DNA from: Candidatus Kaiserbacteria bacterium
Lineage (GTDB): Bacteria; Patescibacteriota; Minisyncoccia; Phycocordibacterales; UBA2100
Length of the DNA stretch: 64,000 nucleotides
Direction: 5' to 3'
Assembly: GCA_017134395.1 (NCBI GenBank)
Contig: CP070993.1
Coordinates: 526,199-590,198 of the forward strand
Shown here one piece after another: positions 23,456 to 37,493 of this stretch (positions are counted from its first letter, which is position 1; each line of letters begins with the position of its first letter). The notes under the pieces were generated by a model that searched no databases, was not told the origin of the DNA, and worked only from the letters and a program-made list of their open reading frames with translations. The translations under genes were made by a program, and so were the position numbers.

Positions 23456-23676
23456 AGTTTTTTAGGTTACCACACTGATTTTTGTAAAAAGAAAGACCGG
23501 CACAAGCCGGACTATTCATAAACAGTATGTGCTACGCAGTATACCTACTGCTTGTAATCAAGTCAATACTACTGAGGTCTTGCATAAAGGTGCTTCTACA
23601 CAGTAAAAAAGGGCTTTAAATGCGGCATTTGGTATACTTACATACAAGAGGGTGCAGTAAGCACTCGTGTTATCAC

Positions 23677-25422
23677 ATGTACATTAATGACGAACAACTT
23701 CGTGAATTTTTAAGCGACTCAGGACTTGTTTCGCAGAAAAAATTCGATAACGCTGTAAAAACAGCGACAGAAAAAAGCATTACGGTGAGTGAAGTGTTGG
23801 TTTCAGAAGGAGAGATTTCTGAAGACGATTTGCGACGCTCGCACGCGTACGTACTTGGTATTCCTTTTGTTAATTTGTCTGATTCAAAACCAGATCTTAA
23901 TACTCTGGCTCTTATTCCAGAACCTATTGCGCGACGTAATAATATTGTTGCGTTTAGGCAAGAAGAGAACAATTTGGAAGTTGCCATGCTTGATACGGAT
24001 GATTTGGCAGCGATTGATTTCGTAAAGAAGAAGACGCAGCTTAAGATTCTGCCGCGACTTACTGACGCTGCATCAATTAAACAGATGCTTCGCTTGTACC
24101 AAAAGACACTTCGCGACGAATTGGGAGATGTAATTACGCGTGAATCACAAACGCTTGAAAAGTTTGGAAAATTACAACCAGAGAACGAAAAGGATTTACG
24201 AAAACTTGCAGAAGGAGTTCCTGCTGTACGAGTGCTTGATTCATTACTGCGCCACGCAATTGTACAAAATGCATCTGACATACATATAGAGCCACAAGAA
24301 GACGCGCTGTTAGTTCGCTATCGTATTGATGGAATTTTGCATGACGCTATGTCACTGCCAAGTAGTGCCACTGCTTCGATTACTGCACGTGTAAAAATTT
24401 TGGCCAACTTACGGTTGGATGAAAAAAGACTCCCTCAAGATGGGCGGTTCAGAATGGAGACAGATGGCGATAGGGTGTCATTCCGTGTTTCAGTGCTACC
24501 GACGTATCATGGAGAAAAAACAGTTATGCGATTGTTGCGCGAAGACGTTTCTGGATTCACATTAGAATCTCTTGGCTTTCATGGTGAGGGGCTTGAACGC
24601 TCACATGATGCTACTAGAAAGAAAACTGGGTTGATTCTTGTTACAGGCCCAACCGGTTCTGGTAAGTCAACAACTCTCTATACTATGTTGGATATTTTAA
24701 ATACTGCAGACGTCAATATTTCAACAGTTGAAGATCCGATTGAGTATCAGATGAAGCGCATAAACCAAACACAAGTTCGACCAGACATTGGATTCACATT
24801 CTCTACAGGGCTTCGGTCACTCGTCCGGCAAGACCCTGATATTATTATGGTTGGTGAAATTCGAGACCGCGAAACTGCGGCGTTAGCCATTAATGCAGCA
24901 CTTACTGGCCACCTTGTGCTTTCAACGCTTCACACCAATTCAGCAGCTGGCGCAGTGCCACGTCTTATTGATATGGGGGTAGAGCCTTTTTTACTTGCAT
25001 CAACATTGCAAGTAGTTATTGGCCAACGACTTGTTCGTACACTGTGTAACGATAGAGAAGAATACAAACTATCCGCCGCCGAAATTAGGGGTCTGGAAGA
25101 GATGGCCGACTTAGGGGCCGTACTGAAGGCATTAAAAGAAGAAGACATTGTTTCCCAAAAAAGTACATTTAAAAATGTTTCTCTTTCAAAAGAAAAGCCA
25201 ACAAAAGAATGTGAGACGGGTTACAGTGGACGAAAGGGAATTCAAGAAGTACTGCCGGTGACAGAAGGAATTAAAAAAATGATTCTTTCAGGGTCTTCAG
25301 CTGATGCTATTGAAGATCAGGCACGAAAAGAGGGGATGCTTACCATGCTTGAGGATGGTATTTACAAAAGCGCATCAGGAACGACGAGTCTTGCCGAAGT
25401 ACTTCGTGTGGTAAGTGAATAA
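23677..25422 (+). CDS. pilB: type IV pilus assembly / type II secretion ATPase (PilB/GspE family)
   Basis: Walker A GPTGSGKST, GspE N-domain, Asp and His boxes; 581 aa from the Met at 23677. Confidence 0.9.
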   Translation: MYINDEQLREFLSDSGLVSQKKFDNAVKTATEKSITVSEVLVSEGEISEDDLRRSHAYVLGIPFVNLSDSKPDLNTLALIPEPIARRNNIVAFRQEENNLEVAMLDTDDLAAIDFVKKKTQLKILPRLTDAASIKQMLRLYQKTLRDELGDVITRESQTLEKFGKLQPENEKDLRKLAEGVPAVRVLDSLLRHAIVQNASDIHIEPQEDALLVRYRIDGILHDAMSLPSSATASITARVKILANLRLDEKRLPQDGRFRMETDGDRVSFRVSVLPTYHGEKTVMRLLREDVSGFTLESLGFHGEGLERSHDATRKKTGLILVTGPTGSGKSTTLYTMLDILNTADVNISTVEDPIEYQMKRINQTQVRPDIGFTFSTGLRSLVRQDPDIIMVGEIRDRETAALAINAALTGHLVLSTLHTNSAAGAVPRLIDMGVEPFLLASTLQVVIGQRLVRTLCNDREEYKLSAAEIRGLEEMADLGAVLKALKEEDIVSQKSTFKNVSLSKEKPTKECETGYSGRKGIQEVLPVTEGIKKMILSGSSADAIEDQARKEGMLTMLEDGIYKSASGTTSLAEVLRVVSE

Positions 25423-25425
25423 TAT

Positions 25426-26634
25426 ATGAAGTTCACCTACAAAGCAGAACGAGATGGGGAGACGTACACTGACACTATTGAAGCAACTGATAGGTTTGAG
25501 GTGTATAGACATGTGAGAGCAGAGGGGGGAACGGTGATTTCGGTTACCTCGGAAGCACAAAACAACTGGAGTCTTACGTATTGGAATTCTAAATTTTCGA
25601 CAGTAAAAGAGCACGACAAAATTGTGTTCGCATCAAACCTTGCAGCCATGATTTCAGCCGGACTTCCGATATCGCGTGCGCTTTCAGTTGCAGAGAGACA
25701 GGCAAAAAACCCCAAACTAAAAAGCGTTATCTTGCATGTGCGTGGGGATATTCAAAAGGGCGGCACGTTTCATGAGGCGCTTGGTAGATTTCCTAATATA
25801 TTTTCTAAATTATTTGTCGCAATGGTTCGCGCAGGTGAAGAGTCAGGAACACTCGATGAGGCACTTACGACAGTTGGAAACCAACTTCAACGCTCATACG
25901 AACTGAAGAAAAAAATTAAAGGAGCACTTATTTATCCAAGTATTATTGTAGTGGCTATTGTTGGTATTGGTTTTCTGATGATGACTGAAGTAGTACCAAC
26001 ACTTTCGAAGACATTTACAGAATTAGGAGCTGATCTCCCCAAGGCAACGCAGGCGATTATTAATGTGAGTGATTTTTTGGTGAATTACACACTCCTTGTA
26101 CTACTTGGCGTTTTGGGTTCTGTTGCAGGGGTATATGGAATTTTACGAACAGCTGGTGGTCAGCGTGGCAGAGATAAGATTCTCCTAACGACTCCTTTAA
26201 TTGGTGAGCTTGTGAAAGAAATTAATGCAGCACGAACTGCACGGACATTTGCTTCGCTCCTAGCGGCTGGGGTAGATATTCTTACTGCACTTCAAATTAC
26301 TGGCGAAGTTGTACAAAACCACTATCACAAAGATGTGCTTAAAGCAGCAGCAGAAAAAGTTCAAAAGGGAGGGCAGCTTTCGGATACATTTATGAAACGA
26401 GAAGATCTCTACCCGCCGCTTATGGGTGAGATGATAGCAGTAGGTGAAGAGACAGGTGCACTTGCTGACATGCTTTTACGTGTAGCTACTTTTTACGAAG
26501 GCGAGGTTGAACAAAAAACAAAAAATATGTCGACAATTATTGAACCATTTCTCATGTTAATCATTGGTGTGACTGTCGGGTTCTTCGCAGTTGCGATGAT
26601 AGGACCTATTTACTCTCTCTCTGAGGCTTTCTAA
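25426..26634 (+). CDS. pilC: type IV pilus inner-membrane platform protein (PilC/GspF family)
   Basis: two GspF repeats, 3 TM helices, 402 aa, immediately downstream of pilB. Confidence 0.9.
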   Translation: MKFTYKAERDGETYTDTIEATDRFEVYRHVRAEGGTVISVTSEAQNNWSLTYWNSKFSTVKEHDKIVFASNLAAMISAGLPISRALSVAERQAKNPKLKSVILHVRGDIQKGGTFHEALGRFPNIFSKLFVAMVRAGEESGTLDEALTTVGNQLQRSYELKKKIKGALIYPSIIVVAIVGIGFLMMTEVVPTLSKTFTELGADLPKATQAIINVSDFLVNYTLLVLLGVLGSVAGVYGILRTAGGQRGRDKILLTTPLIGELVKEINAARTARTFASLLAAGVDILTALQITGEVVQNHYHKDVLKAAAEKVQKGGQLSDTFMKREDLYPPLMGEMIAVGEETGALADMLLRVATFYEGEVEQKTKNMSTIIEPFLMLIIGVTVGFFAVAMIGPIYSLSEAF

Positions 26635-26738: not shown

Positions 26739-27200
26739 ATGAAGTCGAATGTTCTTTATATACGAGGGGTAGGACTGCTAGAGATTGTAGTAGGAGTATC
26801 ACTCCTTACCACGGTTTTTGTAGGAATGTTTGGCGTGTTACAGCTCGGAACTCGGCTTGCGACAGATAATAAATCTCGTACCGGAGCACTCGCACTTGCG
26901 ATTGAGAGAATGGAATACATACGTAGCCTCGATTACGATGATATCGGGACGGTTGGTGGAGACCCTTCAGGTGCCCTCTTGGTGAGTGTACCAATTACAC
27001 TGAATAACATTGCGTACACACAACGCACGTATATTGTATATGTAGATGATCCCAAAGATGGTTCCGGTGGCTCAGATTCAAATGGTATAACCGATGACTA
27101 CAAGAGGGTAAAAGTTGAGGTGTCATGGGTGGGTCCAAAAAATAATGTACGAGAGACTACGTTAGTGAGTGATATTTCATCGCTATTAATAGAATCATAG
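26739..27200 (+). CDS. prepilin-type (pseudopilin-like) protein
   Basis: N-terminus MKSNVLYIRGVGLLEIVVGVSLL resembles a class III signal with Glu at +5; 153 aa. Confidence 0.6.
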   Translation: MKSNVLYIRGVGLLEIVVGVSLLTTVFVGMFGVLQLGTRLATDNKSRTGALALAIERMEYIRSLDYDDIGTVGGDPSGALLVSVPITLNNIAYTQRTYIVYVDDPKDGSGGSDSNGITDDYKRVKVEVSWVGPKNNVRETTLVSDISSLLIES

Positions 27201-27201
27201 T

Positions 27202-27798
27202 ATGAAATATTACGCATCACAGCGCGGATTTACTTTATTAGAAGCAGTTGTATTACTGGGCGTGTTTGTTTTGATTGTCGGCGCTATTGTTTCTTCACTA
27301 CGGTATGTCTATCGAGGTCAGCGGTTTGCTTTTGAACAAGCTGATGCGACGCGTTCAGCTCGAACTGGTATTGAACGCGCGGTGCAAGATTTACGCGAAG
27401 CATCAGATGCAGACAATGGCGCGTATCCTATTGTATCGATGGCAACAAGCAGCGTTTCTTTCTATAGTGACTACGACAATGACAATAAAATTGAACAGAT
27501 TCGGTATTTTATAGATGGGACAGATTTCAAAAAAGGAATTATAGAATCTAGTGGAGACCCTCCTGTGTACAATGGGGGAAGTGAGGTGGTGACAACTATT
27601 GCAACTGAGGTTCGTAATAATGTAATCGGTACACCTATGTTTACTTACTATGATAAGAGTGGGGTATTTATGAATGACTATACTGATATCGACCAACTGG
27701 CTTTTGTGACGCTACGACTTGTTGTTAATCTGCACCCAGAACGCGCGCCTGATGATTTTGAGCTCAGAAGTAGCGCCGCACTCCGTAACATTAGATAA
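27202..27798 (+). CDS. type IV pilin-like protein
   Basis: canonical prepilin signal RGFTLLEAVVLLGVFVLIVGAI. Confidence 0.75.
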   Translation: MKYYASQRGFTLLEAVVLLGVFVLIVGAIVSSLRYVYRGQRFAFEQADATRSARTGIERAVQDLREASDADNGAYPIVSMATSSVSFYSDYDNDNKIEQIRYFIDGTDFKKGIIESSGDPPVYNGGSEVVTTIATEVRNNVIGTPMFTYYDKSGVFMNDYTDIDQLAFVTLRLVVNLHPERAPDDFELRSSAALRNIR

Positions 27799-27799
27799 T

Positions 27800-29218
27800 A
27801 TGAAACATTCTTCACAAAAGGGAATCGTAATTATTTTAGTGCTGGTGTTTGCAGCAGTATTTGGATTGTCAGTTTCTGCTCTCACAAGTTTTATATTTAG
27901 CCAGGCGCAATTAGGGGCTGGAAAAGAAGTGCGCGAACAGGCGCTGAATATAGCCGAAGCAGGTCTTGAATACTATCATTGGTTCCTTACTCACAACCCT
28001 GGAGATACCCAAGACGGAACTGGAGGCCTCGGGCCGTATGTACACACCTATTCTGATCCAGAAACCGGTGAAATAGGTTCGTTTAGTTTAGATATTGTTG
28101 GAAATGAGTCTTGTGGAATACTGCAGTCAATAGACGTCACATCAACTGGCACCGTGAATTCCGACCCCAAATTTACTCGAACTGTTTTTGGGAGACATGC
28201 TGCTCCTTCTGTTGCTGAATACTCGTACATTATCGGGGACGACGTATGGGCTGGTGCTGATCGTGAAATTACCGGACCCTATCATTCAAATGGAGGCATA
28301 CGGATGGATGGGACCAACAACTCAGTGGTAACGAGTGCTGTCTCAACGTGGTCTCAGAGTTTCAACTGCAACGGTGGGAGTGCATCCCCGGGCGTGTGTG
28401 GTGACGGGCCAAATTCTACGCTCTGGCGATACCCTGCTTCTGAGTTGAGCTTTAGTGATATAGAGGCTAATTTCTCGAGTATAAAAACAGCAGCAATTGC
28501 GGATGGTATTTATCTTGCGCCATACGGCTCAACTGAAACCTACATCTTTAATCCTTACGGAGGTCCAACAGACACTGCGGCTGATGGGTACCACTTGATT
28601 TTTAATGCAGATGGAACAGTTGATATATATCAAGTTACCAGCACGACAGGATATTGGGGGTATCTTTCGGGCATTGGGTACACAGCCGATTACCATATTA
28701 TAAGTGGAGAGTCTTTTATAGAGCGACGTACAGTACCTACAGATTGTTCAGTTATCTTTGTTGAAGATAAAGTATGGATTGAAGGAACAGTAAAAGGAAA
28801 AGTAACAGTCATAGCAGCAGATTTGGTGAATTCTGGATATGATCCAGATGTAATTATCTCTGGTGATATTGATTACTCTGTACAAGATGGTTCAGATGGC
28901 CTTACTGTCATCAGTGAATTTGGTATCTACCTACCGAGAGACTCCGCTGATACACTTTCAATACACGGTATTTTTGTCGCACAAGGAGATAGATTTGGTC
29001 GACCATATTATAGCGGTAGTTTAAAGACGCAATTAACAATAAAAGGATCTATTGTGTCGAGTCAACGAGTAGGAACTTCTTGGTCATCAGGATCTACTAT
29101 TATTTCAGGTTACCAGAATCGGGATAGCATATATGATCGACTACAGACAACAAACCCGCCTCCATTTACGCCATCGAGGACGCTCATTCCTGAATATATT
29201 CTTTGGCAAGAACTGTAG
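27800..29218 (+). CDS. large pilus-associated protein (minor pilin/PilX-like N-terminus, big C-terminal domain)
   Basis: N-terminal hydrophobic helix QKGIVIILVLVFAAVFGLSV; pilin-operon context; Gly/Ser/Thr-rich C-terminal domain. Confidence 0.5.
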   Translation: MKHSSQKGIVIILVLVFAAVFGLSVSALTSFIFSQAQLGAGKEVREQALNIAEAGLEYYHWFLTHNPGDTQDGTGGLGPYVHTYSDPETGEIGSFSLDIVGNESCGILQSIDVTSTGTVNSDPKFTRTVFGRHAAPSVAEYSYIIGDDVWAGADREITGPYHSNGGIRMDGTNNSVVTSAVSTWSQSFNCNGGSASPGVCGDGPNSTLWRYPASELSFSDIEANFSSIKTAAIADGIYLAPYGSTETYIFNPYGGPTDTAADGYHLIFNADGTVDIYQVTSTTGYWGYLSGIGYTADYHIISGESFIERRTVPTDCSVIFVEDKVWIEGTVKGKVTVIAADLVNSGYDPDVIISGDIDYSVQDGSDGLTVISEFGIYLPRDSADTLSIHGIFVAQGDRFGRPYYSGSLKTQLTIKGSIVSSQRVGTSWSSGSTIISGYQNRDSIYDRLQTTNPPPFTPSRTLIPEYILWQEL

Positions 29219-29236: not shown

Positions 29237-29989
29237 ATGAAATCGGTGATTTGTAATTGGAAAATGAATCCTGCAACTTTTGCTGAGGCGAAGAAACTCT
29301 TTGATGCAACGAAAACACTTGCAGCTTCTGTAAAGAAAGTAGATATCGTTGTCGCCCCACCTGTTGTTTTCTTACGAGAGCTTGCAAAAGGGTACAGAGG
29401 CACTCGTGTGGAATTTGGAGCACAGAATATTTCAACCGAAAGTGAAGGGTCGCATACTGGTGAAACCGCTGCTGCACAAGTACGAGATGCTGGGGCAACG
29501 CATGTGATTATAGGTCATGCAGAGCGCCGTGCACTGGGCGAGACTGATGAACAAGTTGGCAAAAAAGTACTCACGGCACTTGAAAATAAAATGGATGCCA
29601 TAATTGCAGTCGGCGAAAGTGAACGCGACATACATGGGGAGTACGTACAGGTAGTTCGGAATCAAATCGTCACTGCACTACGAGAAATTCCTGCAGCGAG
29701 ATTTAAAAATGTAACCATAGCATATGAACCTATATGGGCAATTGGGGCGCCAACTGCACCTGACGCAAACGAAGTGCATCAAATGATGTTATTAGTTCGA
29801 AAGACGGTACGCGATGCGTTTGGAGATAAAGCACTTAAAGCAGTACGTGTTGTGTACGGAGGGGCGGTAAATGAAGATAATGCTGAGGGCATATTACGTG
29901 TTCCAGATCTCGACGGTGTATTAGTGGGTCGGGCAAGCCTTGATCCAGCACGGTTGAAAGTTATAGTACAAGCGGCACAAAGCGCATGA
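29237..29989 (+). CDS. tpiA: triosephosphate isomerase
   Basis: CNWKMN…, IIGHAERR, YEPIWAIG…. Confidence 0.92.
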   Translation: MKSVICNWKMNPATFAEAKKLFDATKTLAASVKKVDIVVAPPVVFLRELAKGYRGTRVEFGAQNISTESEGSHTGETAAAQVRDAGATHVIIGHAERRALGETDEQVGKKVLTALENKMDAIIAVGESERDIHGEYVQVVRNQIVTALREIPAARFKNVTIAYEPIWAIGAPTAPDANEVHQMMLLVRKTVRDAFGDKALKAVRVVYGGAVNEDNAEGILRVPDLDGVLVGRASLDPARLKVIVQAAQSA

Positions 29990-31092
29990 ATGTAGAATGG
30001 ATAGATGAACAGAATGATTTAGCTGGCAAAGTGGTGCTAGTCCGTGCTGGGCTAAATACTCCTATAGAAAAAGGAGTGGTTCGGACTGATTTTCGAATAC
30101 GAAAAGCTATCCCGACACTACGTTTTCTTAGAGACCAGGGTGCTCGGGTAATTGTAATTGCACACATTGGGCGCGATAAAAACGAAACACTCCAGCCTGT
30201 TGCAGATGCGCTTAATGAATATTTTCCAGTAAGGTTTCAAGAAAGAAAAGATCTAGATGTTTCTACATTACAAAATGGTGACATCACGTTGCTTGAAAAC
30301 CTACGACAAGATAATCGTGAAGTAGCTGGTGATGAAACTCTCGCACAGGAACTCGCAGCGCTTGCTGATGTTTTTGTACAAGATGCATTTTCAGTGTGTC
30401 ATCGGAACCATGCGAGTATTGTTGGGATACCAAAATACATCAAAAGTTATGGTGGTTTGTTAGTGAGGGAAGAAACTGAGAAATTAGCGAGTGTTCTCCA
30501 ACCAGAACATCCTGCACTTTTCATTTTAGGAGGTGCGAAGTTTGGGACAAAAGAACCACTCATTCGGAAATTTATGGGAGTCTATGATTCTGTCTTTATC
30601 GGTGGTGCACTACAAAACGAGCTACTCGCTGCGCGCGGAATAGAGGTAGGGGCGTCGGTTATCGATGATGGTGAAGTTGCCAAAGATATTTTAGAAAATG
30701 AAAAAGTAGCTGATGTGCACGATGTTATTGTTGAGCATGTTGATGGAAGTTCTGAAACGCTTTCAATAAACCAAATAGGTAACGAAGACACGATTGTTGA
30801 TATAGGAGAGGGCACGATGCAGAATTTTGTTGCAACGTTTAATACATACAAAACTATTGTGTGGAACGGACCACTTGGCTGGTACGAAAAGGGGTACATC
30901 AGTGCGACAAAAACATGTGCACAGACACTTGCATTAAGTAGCGCAACGACAGTTGTTGGAGGTGGAGACACCATCGCACTTATTCAAAAAGAAAAGTTAG
31001 AAAATGAGTTTGACTTTGTTTCAACAGGAGGTGGGGCAATGTTGGAGTTTTTGCTCAAAGGAACGCTTCCCGGGCTTGAAGTACTGAAATAA
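29986..31092 (+). CDS. pgk: phosphoglycerate kinase
   Basis: VRAGLNTP…, two-lobe PGK with GGGA…; 4-bp overlap with tpiA. Confidence 0.9.
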   Translation: MNVEWIDEQNDLAGKVVLVRAGLNTPIEKGVVRTDFRIRKAIPTLRFLRDQGARVIVIAHIGRDKNETLQPVADALNEYFPVRFQERKDLDVSTLQNGDITLLENLRQDNREVAGDETLAQELAALADVFVQDAFSVCHRNHASIVGIPKYIKSYGGLLVREETEKLASVLQPEHPALFILGGAKFGTKEPLIRKFMGVYDSVFIGGALQNELLAARGIEVGASVIDDGEVAKDILENEKVADVHDVIVEHVDGSSETLSINQIGNEDTIVDIGEGTMQNFVATFNTYKTIVWNGPLGWYEKGYISATKTCAQTLALSSATTVVGGGDTIALIQKEKLENEFDFVSTGGGAMLEFLLKGTLPGLEVLK

Positions 31093-31102
31093 GAAACACT
31101 CT

Positions 31103-31522
31103 TTACAGAGAGTCTTTTATTTTTGCTGCGATTTTCTCGGCGATAGTGGTCAATGTTTCGCTACTTGGATTTCCCTCTTTTCCTTCGAGTAATATTTTTG
31201 AAGTGATGTCTTCGTGATCTTCTGTTGGTATAAGATGTACGTGTGTATGTGGTACGTCCCATCCTGCGATGACCAGACCCATCTTTTTTGGTTTCAGCGC
31301 ATTTTCGATTGCTCCAGCAAGAATGTGTGTAGCTTGCATGACATGCATATATACTTCGATCGGGAGTTTTTCAAAATTTGGCTCGTGTACTTTTGGTACA
31401 ACAAGTAAGTGACCTGGGCGGATTGGATGGATATCCATAAATGCCAATACGGTTTCATTTTCGTACACTTTATACGAGGGCAGTTCATCTCTAACTATTT
31501 TACAAAAAATACATTCTTCCAT
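31103..31522 (-). CDS. HIT-family (histidine triad) hydrolase
   Basis: CIFCKIV…; histidine triad HTHVHLIP. Confidence 0.85.
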   Translation of the reverse strand: MEECIFCKIVRDELPSYKVYENETVLAFMDIHPIRPGHLLVVPKVHEPNFEKLPIEVYMHVMQATHILAGAIENALKPKKMGLVIAGWDVPHTHVHLIPTEDHEDITSKILLEGKEGNPSSETLTTIAEKIAAKIKDSL

Positions 31523-31544
31523 TAGTGCAGTATAATCCAAACAC

Positions 31545-33272
31545 ATGACTAAATCCAAAGCATACACAGTACGAAAAAAACCGAGCGAAACAGTACGGAA
31601 AGCACTCAAAGAATTTCCAGATTTTGTACAGGAAATTTTGGCAGCTCGGGGTATAAAAACACATAAAGCTGCACAAGATTTTTTTAATCCAAACTACGAT
31701 GAACAAGTATATGATCCATTCCTTTTGCACGACATGGATGTTGCTGTTACACGGATCATAAAAGCAATCGATAATAACGAACATATTGCTATCTACAGCG
31801 ATTTTGACGCAGACGGTATTCCCGGTGGTGCGCTGTTACACGACGTATTCAAAAAGATTGGCTACGAGCGTTTCACAAACTATATCCCACACAGAGACAC
31901 AGAAGGGTATGGTTTTCATAAGGAGGCAGTCGATACTCTCTTAAAGAAGGAAGTATCGCTTATTATAACGGTGGATGTCGGCATTACGAATGGTGAAACG
32001 GTTACGCATGCCAATACATTAGGAGTCGATGTTATTGTTACTGACCATCATATTCCTAGTAAAACACTGCCTGATGCAGTTGCTGTTGTGAACCCGCAAC
32101 GCGAAGATGAAACATACCCATTTCGGTTTTTTTGCGGGACAGGTGTGGCGTTCAAATTAACTCAGGCACTTTTTATTCGGGCGCGAGAGCAAGACAAAGA
32201 CTGGGTTAAAGATGTTCCGGAAGGGTGGGAAAAATGGTTGCTCGATTTAGTTGCTATCGCGACTGTTGGTGACATGGTTCCGCTTGTCGGTGAAAACAGA
32301 ACATTGGTGCACTACGGACTGACTGTGTTGCACAAATCACGACGACCAGGAATTACTGCACTATGTCGTAAGTTGGGTATCGGGCAGGCGTACATTACAG
32401 AAGATGACATCGGATTTTCTATTGCGCCACGAATTAATGCAGCTTCGAGAATGGGAACTCCTGAATTAGGATTTCGATTGCTTACGACTGTTGATGGTGC
32501 AGAAGCCGCAGACGTCGCGCGCGAGTTAGAATCTCTTAACAATAAACGTAAAGGAAGTGTTGCGAGTATTACGAAAGAGTTAAAGAAACGTTTTGAAGAA
32601 AATTCAGATGGAGCAGTTCTTGTTGCAGGAAATCCAAATTGGAATCCAGCATTACTTGGGCTTGCTGCTAACTCTCTTGTAGATACGTATGGAAAGACGG
32701 CGTGCTTATGGGGACGGGAAGGCACCGGAAGTATCAAAGGGTCATGTCGTGGGAACGGAAACGTAAATGTCGTAGATATGTTTAATCACGCAAGTCATAC
32801 TCTTGTACAATTTGGCGGACACGAACATGCGGGAGGTTTTTCTGTTGATGCAGACAAAGTGCACATTATGGAGGATGCTTTTAACAGTGCGTACAAGGAA
32901 CTTTCAAAAGGGGTCAAACTGTTAGTGCCAGAAGCTGATGCTGTTTTGCCGCATGCGTCATTACGCGAAACGCATAAAGTACTTTCACAATTTGCTCCGT
33001 TTGGTATGGGGAATTCCAAACCAGTATTTGTATATAAAAGTGCTCTTGTACGTTCGTTGAAACAATTTGGAAAAGAAGAGGCACATATAGAATTACATCT
33101 GGCAGCTGATGAATTTGAGAATACTGTTCGAGCGATTGCGTTCTTTAAAAACCCACAATCATTTTCACGAACCCCAGAACAAGATCGTGTCGTTGACGTT
33201 CTGTGCACTATAGAGCTCTCACGTTTTGCTGGTCGCGTAAATCTTGAGCTACGCATTGTGGATATTGTGTAA
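31545..33272 (+). CDS. recJ: single-stranded-DNA-specific exonuclease RecJ (DHH/DHHA1)
   Basis: IAIYSDFDADGIPGGALL, DHH motif VIVTDHH, DHHA1 GGHEHAGG. Confidence 0.85.
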   Translation: MTKSKAYTVRKKPSETVRKALKEFPDFVQEILAARGIKTHKAAQDFFNPNYDEQVYDPFLLHDMDVAVTRIIKAIDNNEHIAIYSDFDADGIPGGALLHDVFKKIGYERFTNYIPHRDTEGYGFHKEAVDTLLKKEVSLIITVDVGITNGETVTHANTLGVDVIVTDHHIPSKTLPDAVAVVNPQREDETYPFRFFCGTGVAFKLTQALFIRAREQDKDWVKDVPEGWEKWLLDLVAIATVGDMVPLVGENRTLVHYGLTVLHKSRRPGITALCRKLGIGQAYITEDDIGFSIAPRINAASRMGTPELGFRLLTTVDGAEAADVARELESLNNKRKGSVASITKELKKRFEENSDGAVLVAGNPNWNPALLGLAANSLVDTYGKTACLWGREGTGSIKGSCRGNGNVNVVDMFNHASHTLVQFGGHEHAGGFSVDADKVHIMEDAFNSAYKELSKGVKLLVPEADAVLPHASLRETHKVLSQFAPFGMGNSKPVFVYKSALVRSLKQFGKEEAHIELHLAADEFENTVRAIAFFKNPQSFSRTPEQDRVVDVLCTIELSRFAGRVNLELRIVDIV

Positions 33273-33309
33273 GTACTATCAGTACTAAGTGAGGTACTAT
33301 AATTCGTAT

Positions 33310-34311
33310 ATGAAAAGTTTTTCTAAAAAAGAAGCGTTTGTAGCTGGGTGGGAAAGTTTTAAGGAGCGTCCATTTTTTATCATTGGGTTATTTCTTATTA
33401 CTACTATCATTTCTATTATTACTGGCCTCATTGCTGACGAAGTTTCAGATGGTGTTATTGGTGCCACAGTAAATGTCGCTGACTTTGCAATACAAACCAT
33501 TATTGGAATGGGCTCAACCCTGATACTTTTGCGATTATATGACAGAGTTGAAACTGACTATACAGACTTACTAGAGCCGCTTCACTTATTTTGGAAATAT
33601 CTCGTCGCATCAATTCTTGTATTGTTAGTTGTGGCGTTTGGACTCATTCTCTTTATTGTTCCAGGTATTGTTGCCGGTGTTGCACTTTTGTTTGCATCGT
33701 ACCTTATTATTGATCGCGATCTTGGACCTGTTGAGGCAATGAAAGAAAGCCTTCGCATCACCAATGGACACCGTTGGAATATCGTACTTTTCTTATTGCT
33801 CGCATTGGGACTTAATATTCTCGGGGCACTTTTCTTTGGAGTTGGTTTGCTCGTAACCATTCCTGTTTCAGCACTTGCAATGGTGCATGTGTATCGATGG
33901 TTGCTTAACCCGCCAACTGAAATAGGAATTGAAGTTTCACTTTTGGTTAAGATCGTTACCGTTCTTTCTATTACAGTTATCTTTATTGGAACGGCCCTTT
34001 TGATTTTTGGGATTGTGGATGGGTTTCTGAACGATTCGGAGTTACGAGATACACAACGTCGTTCAGATTTGTCGCAAATTAAATTAGCATCCGAAATGTA
34101 CTTTGGTACATACAATACGTTCCCAGAATCAGTAGAAGTATTAGTGCCCGACTTTATGTCTCAAGTTCCTGTTGACCCAATCACAGGTATACCGTACGAA
34201 TATGTTCTTCGTGAAGGAGGTGCAGATTTTGAAGCATGCACTATTTTAGAAAATGATGAATCTGGAGGGATACATTGTGAATTCGGTTTAGAATTTGGAG
34301 CTAATAAATAG
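33310..34311 (+). CDS. polytopic membrane protein with C-terminal pseudopilin (GspG-like) domain
   Basis: ~6 TM helices followed by …FLNDSELRDTQRRSDLSQIKLASEMYF…PVDPITGIPYEYV, the GspG/pilin signature, without a prepilin cleavage motif. Confidence 0.5.
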   Translation: MKSFSKKEAFVAGWESFKERPFFIIGLFLITTIISIITGLIADEVSDGVIGATVNVADFAIQTIIGMGSTLILLRLYDRVETDYTDLLEPLHLFWKYLVASILVLLVVAFGLILFIVPGIVAGVALLFASYLIIDRDLGPVEAMKESLRITNGHRWNIVLFLLLALGLNILGALFFGVGLLVTIPVSALAMVHVYRWLLNPPTEIGIEVSLLVKIVTVLSITVIFIGTALLIFGIVDGFLNDSELRDTQRRSDLSQIKLASEMYFGTYNTFPESVEVLVPDFMSQVPVDPITGIPYEYVLREGGADFEACTILENDESGGIHCEFGLEFGANK

Positions 34312-34374
34312 CACGCACTTGCGAGTGTAGTGAGACGTTCGACAGTGCAAAGAGCACTGGGTATACTTATCCGC

Positions 34375-34782
34375 ATGGATAAAATCATTTGCTATACAGA
34401 CGGTGCTTCACGCGGAAACCCAGGACTGGCTTCAGCAGGGGCCGTTATTTTCCAGGGAGAGAAAGTAGTAGCAGAGATTCGTTCACCTCTTGGTGTGCGG
34501 ACAAATAACTGGGCTGAGTACGAGGCGGTGGTACAAGTATTACAGAAAATTAAAGACTTAGACCTTTCAGACAGAAGTATAGAAATACGAATGGATAGTA
34601 AACTTGTTGCCGAACAACTCTCAGGTAATTGGAAGATTAAGAAAGATACGCTCCGTGAGCAATACAACAAAATTCAAGATATTTTACAGAGCGGATTTGG
34701 CGACGTTGCATACACTCATGTTCGACGAGAAAAAAACACCTACGCAGACAGATTGGCAAACGAAGCGCTAGATGCGCAGTAA
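34375..34782 (+). CDS. rnhA: ribonuclease HI
   Basis: ICYTDGASRGNPGLASAGAVI … YTHVRREKNTYADRLANEA. Confidence 0.85.
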   Translation: MDKIICYTDGASRGNPGLASAGAVIFQGEKVVAEIRSPLGVRTNNWAEYEAVVQVLQKIKDLDLSDRSIEIRMDSKLVAEQLSGNWKIKKDTLREQYNKIQDILQSGFGDVAYTHVRREKNTYADRLANEALDAQ

Positions 34783-34784
34783 GT

Positions 34785-36224
34785 ATGCATCGATTTCTCC
34801 CCGTACTCTTCGGGGCGTTTGCCTTAGGAATTGCAGTCAGATCATTTTATGAATTTGGATTGACTTTCGTAGGGCTCTTTGTTTTGAGTGCTCTTAGCCT
34901 ATTGTTTGTTTCACGGCGCAGACTCTTCGTGGTATGTGCAATAGCCCTTTTGTTCTTTGCGCTTGGTGTTGGACGTATGCACGTTGCGGTACCGGTTACG
35001 ATTACGAACATAGAGGTACACACAGAAGACATTGTTGTATTTGAAGGAGTGGTTATAAAAGAACCAGATATTCGAGATACCTACACCAATATAGTTGTCG
35101 CACGCACTGATACAAAACAAAAAGTACTTGTACGGATAACTCCATTTGAAGAGGTTCACTACAAAGACGAAGTCGCGATACGAGGAATCCTTGAAGCACC
35201 TGAAAATTTTGAGGGCGAAGGAGGCAGGATTTTTAATTACAGAGCGTATTTAGCAAAGGATGCTATTTACAGCATCGCTCCGTTTCCTGAATTTGAAGTA
35301 CTTACGAGTAATTCAACACCAACAGGTTTACTTCTCACGCTCAAAGGGGCGTACTTAGCATCTCTCAAGAGTGTTCTTCCCGAGCCTTCAGCGGCACTCG
35401 CTGGTGGAATTACTGTAGGTGAGAGGCGTTCATTAGGCGATGAGCTCACGCAAGATTTTCGCGATACGGGGCTCATACATATTGTAGTGCTCTCTGGTTA
35501 CAATATTGCCATTGTGGTGCTGTTCATTGTAGCGATGCTTTCGTTTCTACCGCCCAAGCCGAGACATCTCGTTGCTATAGGTGGTATTTTTGTATTTACT
35601 ATCCTCGTCGGTGCTTCAGCGACTGTCGTGCGTGCCGCAATAATGGGAAGCATCGCGTCGTTGGGGGTTGTCGCGGGTCGTACCTATGCGGCACTCTACA
35701 CGCTCGTGCTTGCCGGATTTGCTATGCTGCTGTGGAATCCGTATCTATTAATATATGACCCATCATTTCAGCTCAGTTTCGTAGCAACTGCTGGGCTGTT
35801 ACTTGGAGTTCCGATACTTTTACCGTATCTCCATTTCGTACCCGAAAACTATGCATTGAAGGACATTTTTGCAGCTACCATTGCAACGCAAATCGCCGTA
35901 CTTCCGTTACTGGTGTACATGATAGGGGATGTTTCATTGGTAGCAGTACTCGTTAATCTTCTCGTACTTCCTACAATACCGTTGGCGATGCTCTTTGTGT
36001 TTTTAACTGGTGTAGTAGGAATGGTATACCAACCATTTGCACTTTTGTTTGGGTTTATCGCCCATGCGTTCTTATCGTATGTCATTTTACTCGTAGAGTT
36101 TTTTGCTGACGTTCCATTTGCGGTTGTTAGTCTGCCGACTTTTTCTTTTGTATTTGTGCTTGCTGCATACGGGCTACTGACTGCACTCGTGTGGTATATA
36201 CAAAGAAAAAACGACCCAGCATAG
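34785..36224 (+). CDS. comEC: ComEC/Rec2 competence channel protein, membrane (N-terminal/competence) part only
   Basis: ~10 TM helices, competence-domain motif GLIHIVVLSGYNIAIV; no metallo-beta-lactamase domain in this ORF. Confidence 0.75.
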   Translation: MHRFLPVLFGAFALGIAVRSFYEFGLTFVGLFVLSALSLLFVSRRRLFVVCAIALLFFALGVGRMHVAVPVTITNIEVHTEDIVVFEGVVIKEPDIRDTYTNIVVARTDTKQKVLVRITPFEEVHYKDEVAIRGILEAPENFEGEGGRIFNYRAYLAKDAIYSIAPFPEFEVLTSNSTPTGLLLTLKGAYLASLKSVLPEPSAALAGGITVGERRSLGDELTQDFRDTGLIHIVVLSGYNIAIVVLFIVAMLSFLPPKPRHLVAIGGIFVFTILVGASATVVRAAIMGSIASLGVVAGRTYAALYTLVLAGFAMLLWNPYLLIYDPSFQLSFVATAGLLLGVPILLPYLHFVPENYALKDIFAATIATQIAVLPLLVYMIGDVSLVAVLVNLLVLPTIPLAMLFVFLTGVVGMVYQPFALLFGFIAHAFLSYVILLVEFFADVPFAVVSLPTFSFVFVLAAYGLLTALVWYIQRKNDPA

Positions 36225-36299: not shown

Positions 36300-36893
36300 T
36301 TATGTATTTGCAAAACGTTGTGTTGCAACATCCCAATTGAGATTTTTGAGGAACGCCTCAACATGTTGAGCCTTTTCTGCAGGTAAATAATCAATCATGT
36401 ATGCGTGTTCCCACATGTCTGCAGTAAGAAGTATATCTACGTCCGCGAGCATGCCAAGCTCGTGGTCTGCCGTCCACCATACATGAGGAGTATTACTACT
36501 TTTGTCCCACCCGAGTGTTGTCCATCCAGAACCGCGGCTCATGGCAACACTCTTAAAGTGTGTAATGAAGTCCTCCCAACTTCCGTATTTTTCGGCAACT
36601 GCTGTTTCAAGTGCAGTGCCACGGGGTTCATCTGTTTTTCCACCTACCCACTGTGAAAAGTAGAGTTCGTGCATGCGCATACCATTAAATTCGAATCCTA
36701 AACGACGACGGACTGACTCAATAGCAAATGCATATTTTTCAGAATCTTCTTTAGTAAGATCTGCTATTTGTTCTCGTAGAAGGTTGATGTGTTTCACATA
36801 CCCATTGTACAAGCCAACATGCACTTCTAATTGTTTTTCTGAGATCCCTTCCATTTCTGGGAAATTAAATGTTTGAGTTTCGTATGCGTGCAT
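36300..36893 (-). CDS. sodA: Fe/Mn superoxide dismutase
   Basis: C-terminal DMWEHAYMIDY metal-ligand motif, N-terminal helical-hairpin His region, ~197 aa. Confidence 0.85.
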   Translation of the reverse strand: MHAYETQTFNFPEMEGISEKQLEVHVGLYNGYVKHINLLREQIADLTKEDSEKYAFAIESVRRRLGFEFNGMRMHELYFSQWVGGKTDEPRGTALETAVAEKYGSWEDFITHFKSVAMSRGSGWTTLGWDKSSNTPHVWWTADHELGMLADVDILLTADMWEHAYMIDYLPAEKAQHVEAFLKNLNWDVATQRFANT

Positions 36894-37020
36894 ATAAGTA
36901 TAACTAAGTGCTAATTGCACGCATCATACCACGCACTTCTTGATACACCATCATAGAACGGATGAGCGCAGTGACCTCATCCCTCGTCTTTTATTAAGTT
37001 TTTTTGTGCACACGTATATA

Positions 37021-37055: not shown

Positions 37056-37493
37056 ATGGCGCTTGTATCGAAAAAAGTTTTTTCTGCAGAAACGCGAAAA
37101 CGTATTCGCCGGCAATTTATCGAGTTGTTTGCACGACAGAAAACGCGTAAAGATATAGCTACTGTTCTTGACCAACTTTTGACCGACACCGAGCGCTTGA
37201 TGCTGGCAAAACGCATTGTGCTTATACTTATGCTACAAAACAAAAGTTCGTACTACGAGATACGTGAAGCACTTGGCGTCAGTACCGACACGTCTGCACG
37301 ATGGCATGCATTACTTGAGGAAGGCGAGCTCGATGCGATTGTTAAAACACTCAAGCAGAAAAAAGCTCGCGAACACTTGCTCGATACGGTAGAAATTATT
37401 TTGCGCAGTGGTATGCCACCTATTGCAGGAAGAAATCGGTACTCACGGACATTTCAACTTATAGCTGAAGTAAAGCAGGAGAAGCGTTGGTAA
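37056..37493 (+). CDS. TrpR/YerC-YecD-like helix-turn-helix DNA-binding protein
   Basis: 145 aa; LLTDTERLMLAKRIVLILMLQNKSSYYEIREALGVSTDTSARW resembles TrpR-family HTH proteins. Confidence 0.55.
   Translation: MALVSKKVFSAETRKRIRRQFIELFARQKTRKDIATVLDQLLTDTERLMLAKRIVLILMLQNKSSYYEIREALGVSTDTSARWHALLEEGELDAIVKTLKQKKAREHLLDTVEIILRSGMPPIAGRNRYSRTFQLIAEVKQEKRW

Follow-up and report, generated by a model that had tools for sequence, protein, structure and literature searches.

A gene on the plus strand of a 64,000-nucleotide stretch of a Candidatus Kaiserbacteria genome (Patescibacteriota; assembly GCA_017134395.1, contig CP070993.1, positions 526,199 to 590,198; called the window below and numbered from its first nucleotide) encodes a chimeric integral membrane protein in which a six-helix DUF975 domain is joined to an essentially complete type IV pilin or GspG-type subunit that has neither the leader nor the processing signals. 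What remains of the pilin, namely its alpha1 helix and its head, has been put to use as an ectodomain that stays tethered to the membrane for good as part of a polytopic protein to which it is unrelated. On balance, this tethered and uncleavable head seems to serve as a fixed extracytoplasmic interaction module of the DUF975-type membrane protein. A polytopic membrane protein with a GspG/pilin-like C-terminal module had been described in the original prediction, which was made from the letters of the window, and this description is borne out by the profile, fold and conservation evidence presented here.

The fusion protein and its orthologues

The open reading frame (ORF) runs without interruption from an ATG at 33310 to a stop codon ending at 34311 and encodes 333 amino acids (aa); its product matches, with 100% identity, the NCBI entry 'DUF975 family protein [Candidatus Kaiserbacteria bacterium]'. 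Full-length orthologues were found in independent assemblies from NCBI, ENA, JGI, Logan and TARA (n = 37; 329–367 aa, 38–83% identity), all with the C-terminal extension and the same architecture, and the fusion is present in nine GTDB species genomes, all of them Patescibacteria. About 60 other homologues are ordinary DUF975 proteins of 200–230 aa that end past helix 6. The AlphaFold2 (AF2) model of the full-length protein (predicted local distance difference test score, pLDDT, of 87.4) comprises seven long helices. About six transmembrane (TM) helices had been predicted to precede the pilin-like domain; six are indeed modeled in the DUF975 part, but the seventh long helix (TM7) is part of the pilin module itself. 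Because this last TM helix belongs to the pilin module and not to the polytopic domain, the fusion is one of DUF975 with a leaderless whole pilin.

Homology and fold of the pilin-like head

The head consists of an alpha1-C helix (residues 243–268), a short helix (275–278) and a three-strand sheet (297–301, 306–312 and 321–325). Its homology is visible only at the level of profiles and structure, because the C-terminal 93–126 aa used as a single sequence give no match in Pfam or among PDB sequences; additionally, the curated pilin models T2SSG (PF08334) and N_methyl (PF07963) match neither the whole protein nor the C-terminal fragment even at E ≤ 10, and no NCBIfam model matches the last ~125 residues. 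The search with pilin-family hidden Markov models (HMMs) proposed in the original prediction establishes homology through profiles, though none emerges from the single sequence. Compared by hhalign with 28 canonical prepilins, the profile of TM7 plus head (A2) aligned over 99 columns with 99.87% probability (E 1.1e-31). GspG chains came at the top when the same profile was searched against PDB sequences, and in a 5.8-billion-sequence collection it found at least 14 matches, including genuine prepilins with Pfam N_methyl/T2SSG domains, at E-values down to 3e-9. A head-only profile without the TM helix (A5) had GspG, EpsG or PulG as all eight of its best PDB matches (E 1.6e-4 to 0.018) and retrieved 249 proteins at E ≤ 1e-5, nearly all of which carry Pfam N_methyl and/or T2SSG. 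In its alignments with GspG (2kep) and EpsG (3gn9), the 'PtDPxtxxpYeY' segment of the head falls on 'PvDPW-GnpYqY' of GspG.

Structure prediction of the C-terminal part, also suggested at the outset, returned a pilin-type fold with PulG as its nearest relative. AF2 models the module (pLDDT 91.3) as a 58-residue kinked helix, a short helix and a three-strand sheet, that is, the "lollipop" of pilins. The best PDB match found by Foldseek is PulG (1t92; probability 1.00, E 0.013, TM-score 0.57 on the target), after which come type IV pilins of Clostridioides, Thermus, Shewanella, Streptococcus and Neisseria; nine of the first 11 matches are pilins.

R246, D247, R250, D289, P290, Y298, C310, E314 and C323 are invariant across the 37 orthologues, and Y264, P272, P280, P287 and Y296 are nearly so. 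The R246-D247-x-x-R250 motif, which is followed by L254, opens alpha1-C and is a signature of this pilin clade. Since the head motifs are invariant or nearly invariant in orthologues that share as little as 38% and at most 83% identity, they are not chance matches, and the pseudopilin hallmark that had first drawn attention to this gene is present and conserved. The pair C310/C323 probably forms a disulfide as in the D-region of pilins, which would fit an extracytoplasmic head. In bacteria of the candidate phyla radiation (CPR), enrichment of a thiol-disulfide oxidoreductase family has been reported (Méheust et al., 2019; PMC6744442). The net charge of the head is about -10, compared with an orthologue mean of -13.5 and a mean of -4 for other heads.

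Many orthologues (P0007–P0013, P0018, P0019 and P0028) end in an acidic/aromatic tail past the head, for example 'FDFSEDEFLLE', 'IDFDGDFEYYLGE' and 'AAFDDELEFYFEDFTE' (alignment A1, columns ~365–392), a tail that the window protein does not have. This tail may be a short linear binding motif.

Loss of the prepilin signal

TM7 is the homologue of the alpha1-N helix of type IV pilins and GspG. The hhalign alignment begins inside it, where residue 221 is placed against prepilin position 16, the first residue past G-F-T-L-I-E; when this register is extended, K214 falls at R(-2), I215 at Gly(-1) and S220 at Glu(+5). The prepilin cleavage motif G[FILMVYWAST][TSA][LIVMFP][LIVMPAT]E has no match in the window protein and is restored in none of the 37 orthologues, and no internal GFTLIE-type start was found inside the ORF. 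The site where a prepilin leader would be is occupied by a cytoplasmic juxtamembrane linker in which G-[IV]-E-V-S is conserved and K214 is nearly invariant, and TM7 is preceded by 200 residues with six helices, an arrangement that does not correspond to a class III signal. On its other side the hydrophobic TM7 is continuous with the amphipathic alpha1-C: AF2 gives a single helix with one kink over module positions 6–63 (residues 211–268), to which residues 6–64 of GspG (5wda) are aligned. In the full-length model, the helix 211–241 has a pLDDT of 70–82, the lowest of the helices, which suggests that the packing of the module against the DUF975 bundle is not tight.

As there is no Gly(-1), no cut by a prepilin peptidase is possible; extraction into a filament is likewise impossible because there is no free N-terminus and no Glu(+5), and six further helices lie in the bilayer. 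From established type IV pilus biology we infer that the protein is neither cleaved nor polymerized like a pilin and that it is a permanently tethered monomeric pilin head. Incorporation into a filament is expected to be impossible, conceivably except as a terminal membrane-bound subunit. The earlier claim that a prepilin-peptidase motif is lacking and that the domain cannot be processed is thus upheld, with I215 and S220 standing in place of Gly(-1) and Glu(+5).

The DUF975 domain and predicted topology

Residues 1–200 match Pfam PF06161 (DUF975) with 48.8 bits against a cut-off of 34.8 (E 1.1e-12), and the six AF2 helices of this part span residues 21–44, 49–77, 84–114, 116–136, 155–174 and 180–199. 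The models of UPF0259/YciC remain below their cut-offs (Pfam PF06790, 20.6 bits vs 31.4; NCBIfam NF002774, 25.6 vs 227), and there is a sub-threshold match to BPSS1780 as well; judged by these scores, the window protein is a related superfamily member only, relative to YciC and UPF0259.

The predicted inside segments hold five, three, four and two lysines plus arginines, and the outside segments none (0, 0 and 0). By the positive-inside rule and the helix count, the N-terminus and the K/R-rich loops are therefore assigned to the cytoplasm and the head to the extracytoplasmic side. This would leave the head on the outer face of the cytoplasmic membrane, in the topology of an unassembled, membrane-resident prepilin.

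The best PDB match of the full-length model in Foldseek is the sulfate permease CysZ (3tx3_A), a weak one (E 0.8, probability 0.90) whose superposition gives TM-scores of 0.41 on the query and 0.55 on the target (root-mean-square deviation 6.1, 236 columns). The choline-transporter-like CTL1 comes after CysZ in the ranking. No sequence-level support was found for a link with CysZ/EI24-like permeases, and the match to CysZ is a possible fold-level lead for the DUF975/YciC superfamily as far as the models go.

The head as a recurrent module

A HMMER search of 1.84 billion cluster representatives (50%-identity clusters) returned 27,130 representatives matching the head at E ≤ 1e-3 and 2,486 at E ≤ 1e-10. 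The best 148 of the 27,130 were classed by our own motif and hydropathy heuristics. Canonical GFTLIE-type prepilins account for 17 of the 148, three or more hydrophobic helices precede the head in 49, one TM helix follows a long N-terminal region in 36, and the others are short bitopic proteins without the motif (28, some of them probably fragments), proteins with two TM helices (12) or proteins with none (6). Among these closest relatives of the head, non-pilin architectures exceed true prepilins in number. More than one domain match, i.e., tandem heads, was obtained in 50 of the 148. P0118 (755 aa) carries six near-identical head units of ~124 aa with a single N-terminal TM helix, and P0117 (625 aa) carries three head units behind a DUF975-like/GPDPase_memb-like domain; these soluble tandem repeats indicate that the head folds and functions without a TM helix of its own.

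When 112 of the best 148 were scanned with Pfam, T2SSG was found in 28 (E ≤ 0.001, best E 1.3e-16) and N_methyl in only three, so that the tie of the window protein to the Pfam pilin families is a transitive one. The partner domains of the head comprise RDD, UPF0259/GPDPase_memb/DUF975, Ser/Thr kinase (Pkinase), PsbP_2 and TSP3 repeats, and in many of the fusions the helix before the head resembles the second half of pilin alpha1-N, e.g., "...GILSSIVLASLNSARQKSRDAKR". A DUF975-like N-terminal domain like that of the window protein is recognized in 31 of the 148 by single-pass HMM (E 1e-75 to 3e-4) and in 43 after local jackhmmer iteration, usually over nearly the whole 200-residue domain, so that most of the polytopic head-bearing relatives are DUF975-like. 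These proteins are 326–751 aa long and often have an extra N-terminal extension of 60–90 aa. A DUF975-like domain followed by a TM helix and a pilin head is, therefore, a recurrent and unannotated architecture. Three distant genes of this kind, those on usable contigs, adjoin ribosomal-protein genes, mreB, or a MacB/efflux cluster, and none of the three is near pilus or competence genes. None of the literature searched describes a fusion of pilin heads with polytopic proteins in Patescibacteria; a 2026 preprint on the 'Pam pilus' deals with Ig-like pilins, which are unrelated.

Many of the fusions of a DUF975-like domain with the head have in common a conserved motif on the cytoplasmic side, '(L)K(S/G)(L)KGE(F/I)xFxPxxxxK', just before the last TM helix (P0148, P0198, P0154, P0158, P0165, P0186, P0190, P0207, P0234 and P0251). 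The window protein is without this motif and has 'GIEVSLLVK' at the same place. A distinct family of ~190–320 aa (P0145, P0151, P0159, P0191, P0195, P0199, P0203, P0215, P0227, P0228 and P0243) is characterized by a cytoplasmic N-terminal region of ~75 aa, a TM helix at ~77, RDxxR at exactly residue 109 and a Cys close to the C-terminal end; P0145, the one member checked, gave no informative Pfam domain.

Conserved gene neighborhood

The gene lies in the string recJ-gene-rnhA-comEC, which is kept in all the long-form loci examined (15 loci, including the nine GTDB species genomes) and covers orthologues at 58%, 54% and 40% identity. In the locus of the 40%-identity orthologue (L005), pilB and pilC are missing upstream, PG-binding proteins being found instead, and four genes lie between rnhA and comEC. 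The co-occurrence with pilB, pilC and comEC that the original prediction had proposed to check thus holds for comEC in the long-form loci but not throughout for pilB/pilC.

In related genomes, the same slot is filled by headless short DUF975 proteins, in the order TIM-PGK-RecJ-DUF975short-RNaseH-ComEC (L019), PilB-RecJ-DUF975short-RNaseH-x-ComEC (L009) or RecJ-DUF975-DUF975-RNaseH-ComEC (L007, with tandem short DUF975 genes of 212 and 211 aa at L007 1470–2770). Neither a pilin gene nor a remnant of one was found before RNase H in L007 and L009. Because headless homologues hold the same slot, it is the DUF975 gene, rather than the head, that is syntenic: inside a conserved block, a DUF975 gene has either gained or lost the head.

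Proposed function and alternative explanations

As a static extracytoplasmic binding or interaction module, the head would provide the DUF975 domain with an external contact, a proposal to which we attach low certainty at the level of mechanism. Its partner might be a cell-envelope protein, perhaps even a pilin, or else a ligand outside the cell or on the surface of a host; DNA is an unlikely partner since the head is strongly acidic. The module could have been recruited from the very large pilin gene pool of CPR bacteria and, in this lineage, is found on the DUF975 gene of the recJ-DUF975-rnhA-comEC string.

Several points weigh against this explanation. Foldseek E-values are weak, the best being 0.013 with none ≤ 0.001, and the single sequence has no Pfam T2SSG match. 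Both the topology and the disulfide are predictions. No specific functional patch was identified in the head, the conserved residues of which are a structural core common to the whole pilin clade, and the sole structural hint on the role of DUF975 is the weak resemblance to CysZ (E 0.8). Concerning recurrence, the ranking of the best 148 follows a profile built from this very fusion family, by which the proportions of the architectures are biased, and TM-rich profiles can inflate the HMM scores behind the counts of 31 and 43. Finally, the conserved placement with recJ, rnhA and comEC could mean that a role in DNA uptake is underrated when the head is regarded as a generic module.

The first of the alternatives, which we consider unlikely, is that TM7 and the head mimic an unassembled pilin and dock on the base of a type IV pilus, on its platform or on the pilin pool. 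Such docking would set the DUF975 domain beside the pilus/ComEC machinery, and an unextractable 'last subunit' could anchor or terminate the fiber. It is with other pilins that pilin heads and alpha1 helices normally interact, and in the window protein TM7 is still homologous to pilin alpha1-N while alpha1-C and the head are intact. The tight same-strand string recJ-gene-rnhA-comEC, located 4–10 kb downstream of pilB, pilC and minor pilins and kept in all 15 long-form loci, is also consistent with docking. Furthermore, an enrichment of type IV pili and ComEC has been reported for CPR bacteria, along with a lower frequency of ComEA than in other bacteria (PMC6744442). The original prediction had leaned toward such a role, namely a dock or platform element for the competence pilus encoded 5 kb upstream, which is left unsupported, though not refuted, by four points of synteny and module evidence: headless short DUF975 proteins occupy the same slot in L007, L009 and L019; pilB and pilC are not upstream in L005; the head is also borne by kinases and RDD proteins and occurs in soluble tandem arrays; and three distant DUF975 plus head genes have no pilus or competence neighbors. 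In addition, Phe1 and Glu5, which are required for subunit–subunit contacts in filaments, have been lost. A broader form of this idea, in which the DUF975-like plus head proteins would be an unrecognized accessory class of CPR type IV filaments ('anchor pilins') engaging the pilus base or the membrane pilin pool through the uncleavable alpha1-N helix and the head, is doubtful; the contact would terminate or tether the fiber, or couple its retraction to DNA uptake and nucleotide salvage through ComEC/RecJ.

It is likewise doubtful that the head is a regulatory or sensory ectodomain, an external lid or a ligand or cation sensor that gates or regulates the DUF975 domain as a transporter or channel, perhaps with a CysZ-like fold. 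The nearest structure to the full-length AF2 model is indeed CysZ (3tx3; probability 0.90, TM-score 0.55 on the target), but this match is statistically weak (E 0.8) and we know of no transport function for DUF975, UPF0259 or YciC. The pairing of DUF975-like domain and head in 31–43 of the 148 suggests a functional coupling, the same head is carried externally by a Ser/Thr kinase, a setting in which an ectodomain is usually a sensor, and its strongly acidic character could serve to bind cations; against this, TM7 has a pLDDT of 70–82 and no confident packing of the module on the membrane domain is predicted.

A role as DNA receptor in place of ComEA, in which the head would bind incoming DNA like the ComP/ComZ-type pilins and pass it to ComEC, encoded two genes downstream, is very improbable. 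Only 31% of CPR genomes are reported to have ComEA (PMC6744442), the gene is in an operon-like position with comEC, recJ and RNase H, and some related heads have weak Pfam ComP_DUS matches. However, the head is strongly negative (net about -10; mean of the orthologues -13.5), and acidic C-terminal tails are added in many orthologues, which is the opposite of what known DNA-binding pilins have; no HhH, ComEA or other DNA-binding domain was found in the Pfam and NCBIfam scans, and the short-form homologues at the locus are without the head altogether.

Still less credible is a pro-pilin precursor, from which a non-canonical cut near the cytoplasmic end of TM7, e.g., after G206, would free a pilin from a 200-residue polytopic 'leader'. 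The conserved G-[IV]-E-V-S...K on the cytoplasmic face of TM7 is roughly where the prepilin peptidase site would be, but to our knowledge no prepilin has a polytopic leader. Cryptic cleavage at this motif was considered and rejected: the Gly is out of register (nine residues upstream of the Gly(-1) position) and not invariant, as several orthologues have E, P, D or A instead, and neither register puts a Glu at +5. Finally, an artefact (mis-assembly, frameshift or a gene-calling fusion of a DUF975 gene with an adjacent pilin gene), at which the short DUF975 forms of the same locus in related genomes might hint, is effectively refuted by the independent assemblies and has a negligible likelihood, as the ORF is uninterrupted, the same architecture is found in the 37 orthologues and in nine GTDB species genomes, the ORF contains no GFTLIE-type start, and the short-form loci go straight to RNase H with no pilin gene between.

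Relation to known systems

The pilin module is closest to the GspG/type IV pilin family of CPR (PF08334 plus PF07963), with which it shares the alpha1-N-like helix, an alpha1-C of the form RDxxRxxDLxxI..AL..Y, the segment YP..L..L.P.Y...P.DP.T...Y.Y, a small beta-sheet and the Cys pair, together with the predicted N-in/C-out topology of a membrane-resident prepilin and an AF2 fold nearest to PulG. Unlike these pilins, the window protein has no leader and no Gly(-1), Phe(+1) or Glu(+5), and its helix is continuous with a six-helix domain; it cannot be processed, methylated or polymerized, its head is unusually acidic and it scores below every Pfam pilin threshold. Type IV pilins are familiar as subunits of filaments, and the family is defined by the N-terminal class III signal, in which a short basic leader ends in Gly(-1) and is followed by a hydrophobic residue at +1, usually Phe, and by Glu(+5). 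Since this signal is missing, the protein is not to be classified as a prepilin. The CPR-enriched pilin family 'fam000005' also belongs to this nearest group; according to Méheust et al. (2019; PMC6744442), a pilin family, components of the type IV pilus and ComEC are enriched in CPR or widespread there.

With respect to its N-terminal part, the protein belongs with the DUF975/UPF0259 (YciC)/GPDPase_memb/DUF7847 superfamily, since residues 1–200 score above the Pfam gathering threshold and short homologues show 40–48% identity. Typical members end past helix 6, whereas the window protein adds TM7 and the pilin head. There is a precedent for such a membrane domain carrying a second module, as GPDPase_memb is described in Pfam as the membrane domain of glycerophosphoryl diester phosphodiesterase.

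Pilins that have acquired further domains are known. In modular pilins (PilB and PilC of Streptococcus sanguinis; large minor pilins such as GspK, PilX and TadG/CpaL) the extra domain is on the C-terminal side, the class III signal is kept and the protein is still bound for the filament. They resemble the present case in that a pilin module is joined to other domains, pilins being 'versatile molecular modules', but in the window protein the graft is N-terminal and polytopic and the signal is destroyed. The archaeal ArlF and ArlG (FlaF/FlaG) are relatives of filament subunits with an uncleaved N-terminal anchor and are static parts of a type IV filament machine that contact the cell envelope and do not polymerize into the main filament. 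They are the nearest functional analogy, with no homology claimed: ArlF and ArlG have an archaellin-like beta-sandwich, are bitopic and not joined to a polytopic domain, and are encoded in the archaellum operon.

Significance

CPR bacteria, or Patescibacteria, live as obligate episymbionts; their genomes are tiny, and they rely on pili, on contacts at the cell surface and on the uptake of DNA. For such organisms, a large and so far hidden family of surface modules derived from pilins would supply candidates for host-contact, envelope-organization or pilus-accessory functions, and would offer the first functional handle on the DUF975/YciC superfamily. Current annotation misses this design, because the protein bears the label "DUF975" only and the head has no Pfam match. 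If the module is just a convenient stable ectodomain, the result would still be a useful correction of annotation and a clear example of domain exaptation. The single gene is of moderate interest, which increases when it is taken as the entry to a large unannotated class.

Further features of the locus

The coordinates of the features of the gene and of its neighbors are collected in Table 1.

Table 1. Position, strand and basis of assignment of the features in and around the fusion gene (window numbering).
Feature	Position	Strand	Basis or remark
Whole gene, DUF975 + leaderless pilin fusion protein, 333 aa	33310..34311	+	ORF list, 100% NCBI match, 37 full-length orthologues
DUF975-type membrane domain, residues 1-200, six helices (TM1, TM2, two helical hairpins)	33310..33909	+	Pfam, AF2
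Cytoplasmic juxtamembrane linker, residues 201-214 (PPTEIGIEVSLLVK)	33910..33951	+	orthologue alignment, hhalign register
TM7, residues ~211-241, alpha1-N homologue of type IV pilins/GspG	33940..34032	+	hhalign, GspG 5wda alignment, AF2
Pilin-like head, residues 243-325, predicted extracytoplasmic	34036..34284	+	AF2, Foldseek, profile matches
R246-D247-T-Q-R250 motif, start of alpha1-C	34045..34059	+	R, D, R invariant in orthologues; signature of this pilin clade
P287-V-D289-P290-ITGIP-Y296-E-Y298, counterpart of GspG 'P-x-DPWG-x-x-Y-x-Y'	34168..34203	+	alignment to GspG
C310 ... E314 ... C323, invariant Cys pair and Glu	34237..34278	+	orthologue alignment
ORFs overlapping the gene	33582-34115, 33297-33500, 34161-34388	-	ORF list
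pilB	23620-25422	+	Pfam T2SSE
pilC	25426-26634	+	Pfam T2SSF
Minor-pilin-like ORF, 153 aa, N-terminus RG/VGLLE	26739-27200	+	translation
Minor-pilin-like ORF, 198 aa, N-terminus RG/FTLLE	27202-27798	+	weak N_methyl match, translation
Minor-pilin-like ORF, 499 aa, hydrophobic N-terminal helix without Glu5	27719-29218	+	translation
TIM	29237-29989	+	
PGK	29986-31092	+	
HIT	31103-31609	-	
recJ (DHH, DHHA1, RecJ_OB), directly upstream, conserved neighbor	31545..33272	+	Pfam, synteny
RNase H gene (rnhA), directly downstream, conserved neighbor	34330..34782	+	Pfam, synteny
comEC (DUF4131 + Competence, no MBL domain), 479 aa, starts 3 nt past the RNase H stop	34785..36224	+	Pfam, synteny
SOD	36300-36920	-	
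Trp-repressor-like HTH gene	37056-37493		
Separate metallo-beta-lactamase gene, 291 aa	37498-38373	+	~1.3 kb downstream of comEC

An alternative start, a GTG at 33289, would place seven extra residues (MRYYNSY) ahead of the ATG at 33310. Similar N-terminal extensions are present in two orthologue gene calls (P0019, 'MRYYDGYMSAPTY'; P0030, 'MRYTKDMK'), for which reason the true start is possibly upstream of the ATG used by most annotations. The three minus-strand ORFs that overlap the gene are taken as shadow ORFs because the plus frame is conserved at the protein level.

When the 64-kb window was scanned with the A2 profile, the head was found nowhere else, which leaves the window without a major pilin of this type. 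The third minor-pilin-like ORF (499 aa) is possibly a large minor pilin like GspK or PilX. The metallo-beta-lactamase gene is separated from comEC by the divergently oriented SOD and the Trp-repressor-like HTH gene; this looks like a split ComEC with the nuclease domain as a stand-alone gene. The pair of SOD and Lactamase_B downstream of comEC recurs in the gene tables of the orthologous loci L001, L003 and L005, and L007 shows a weak Lactamase_B match after SOD.

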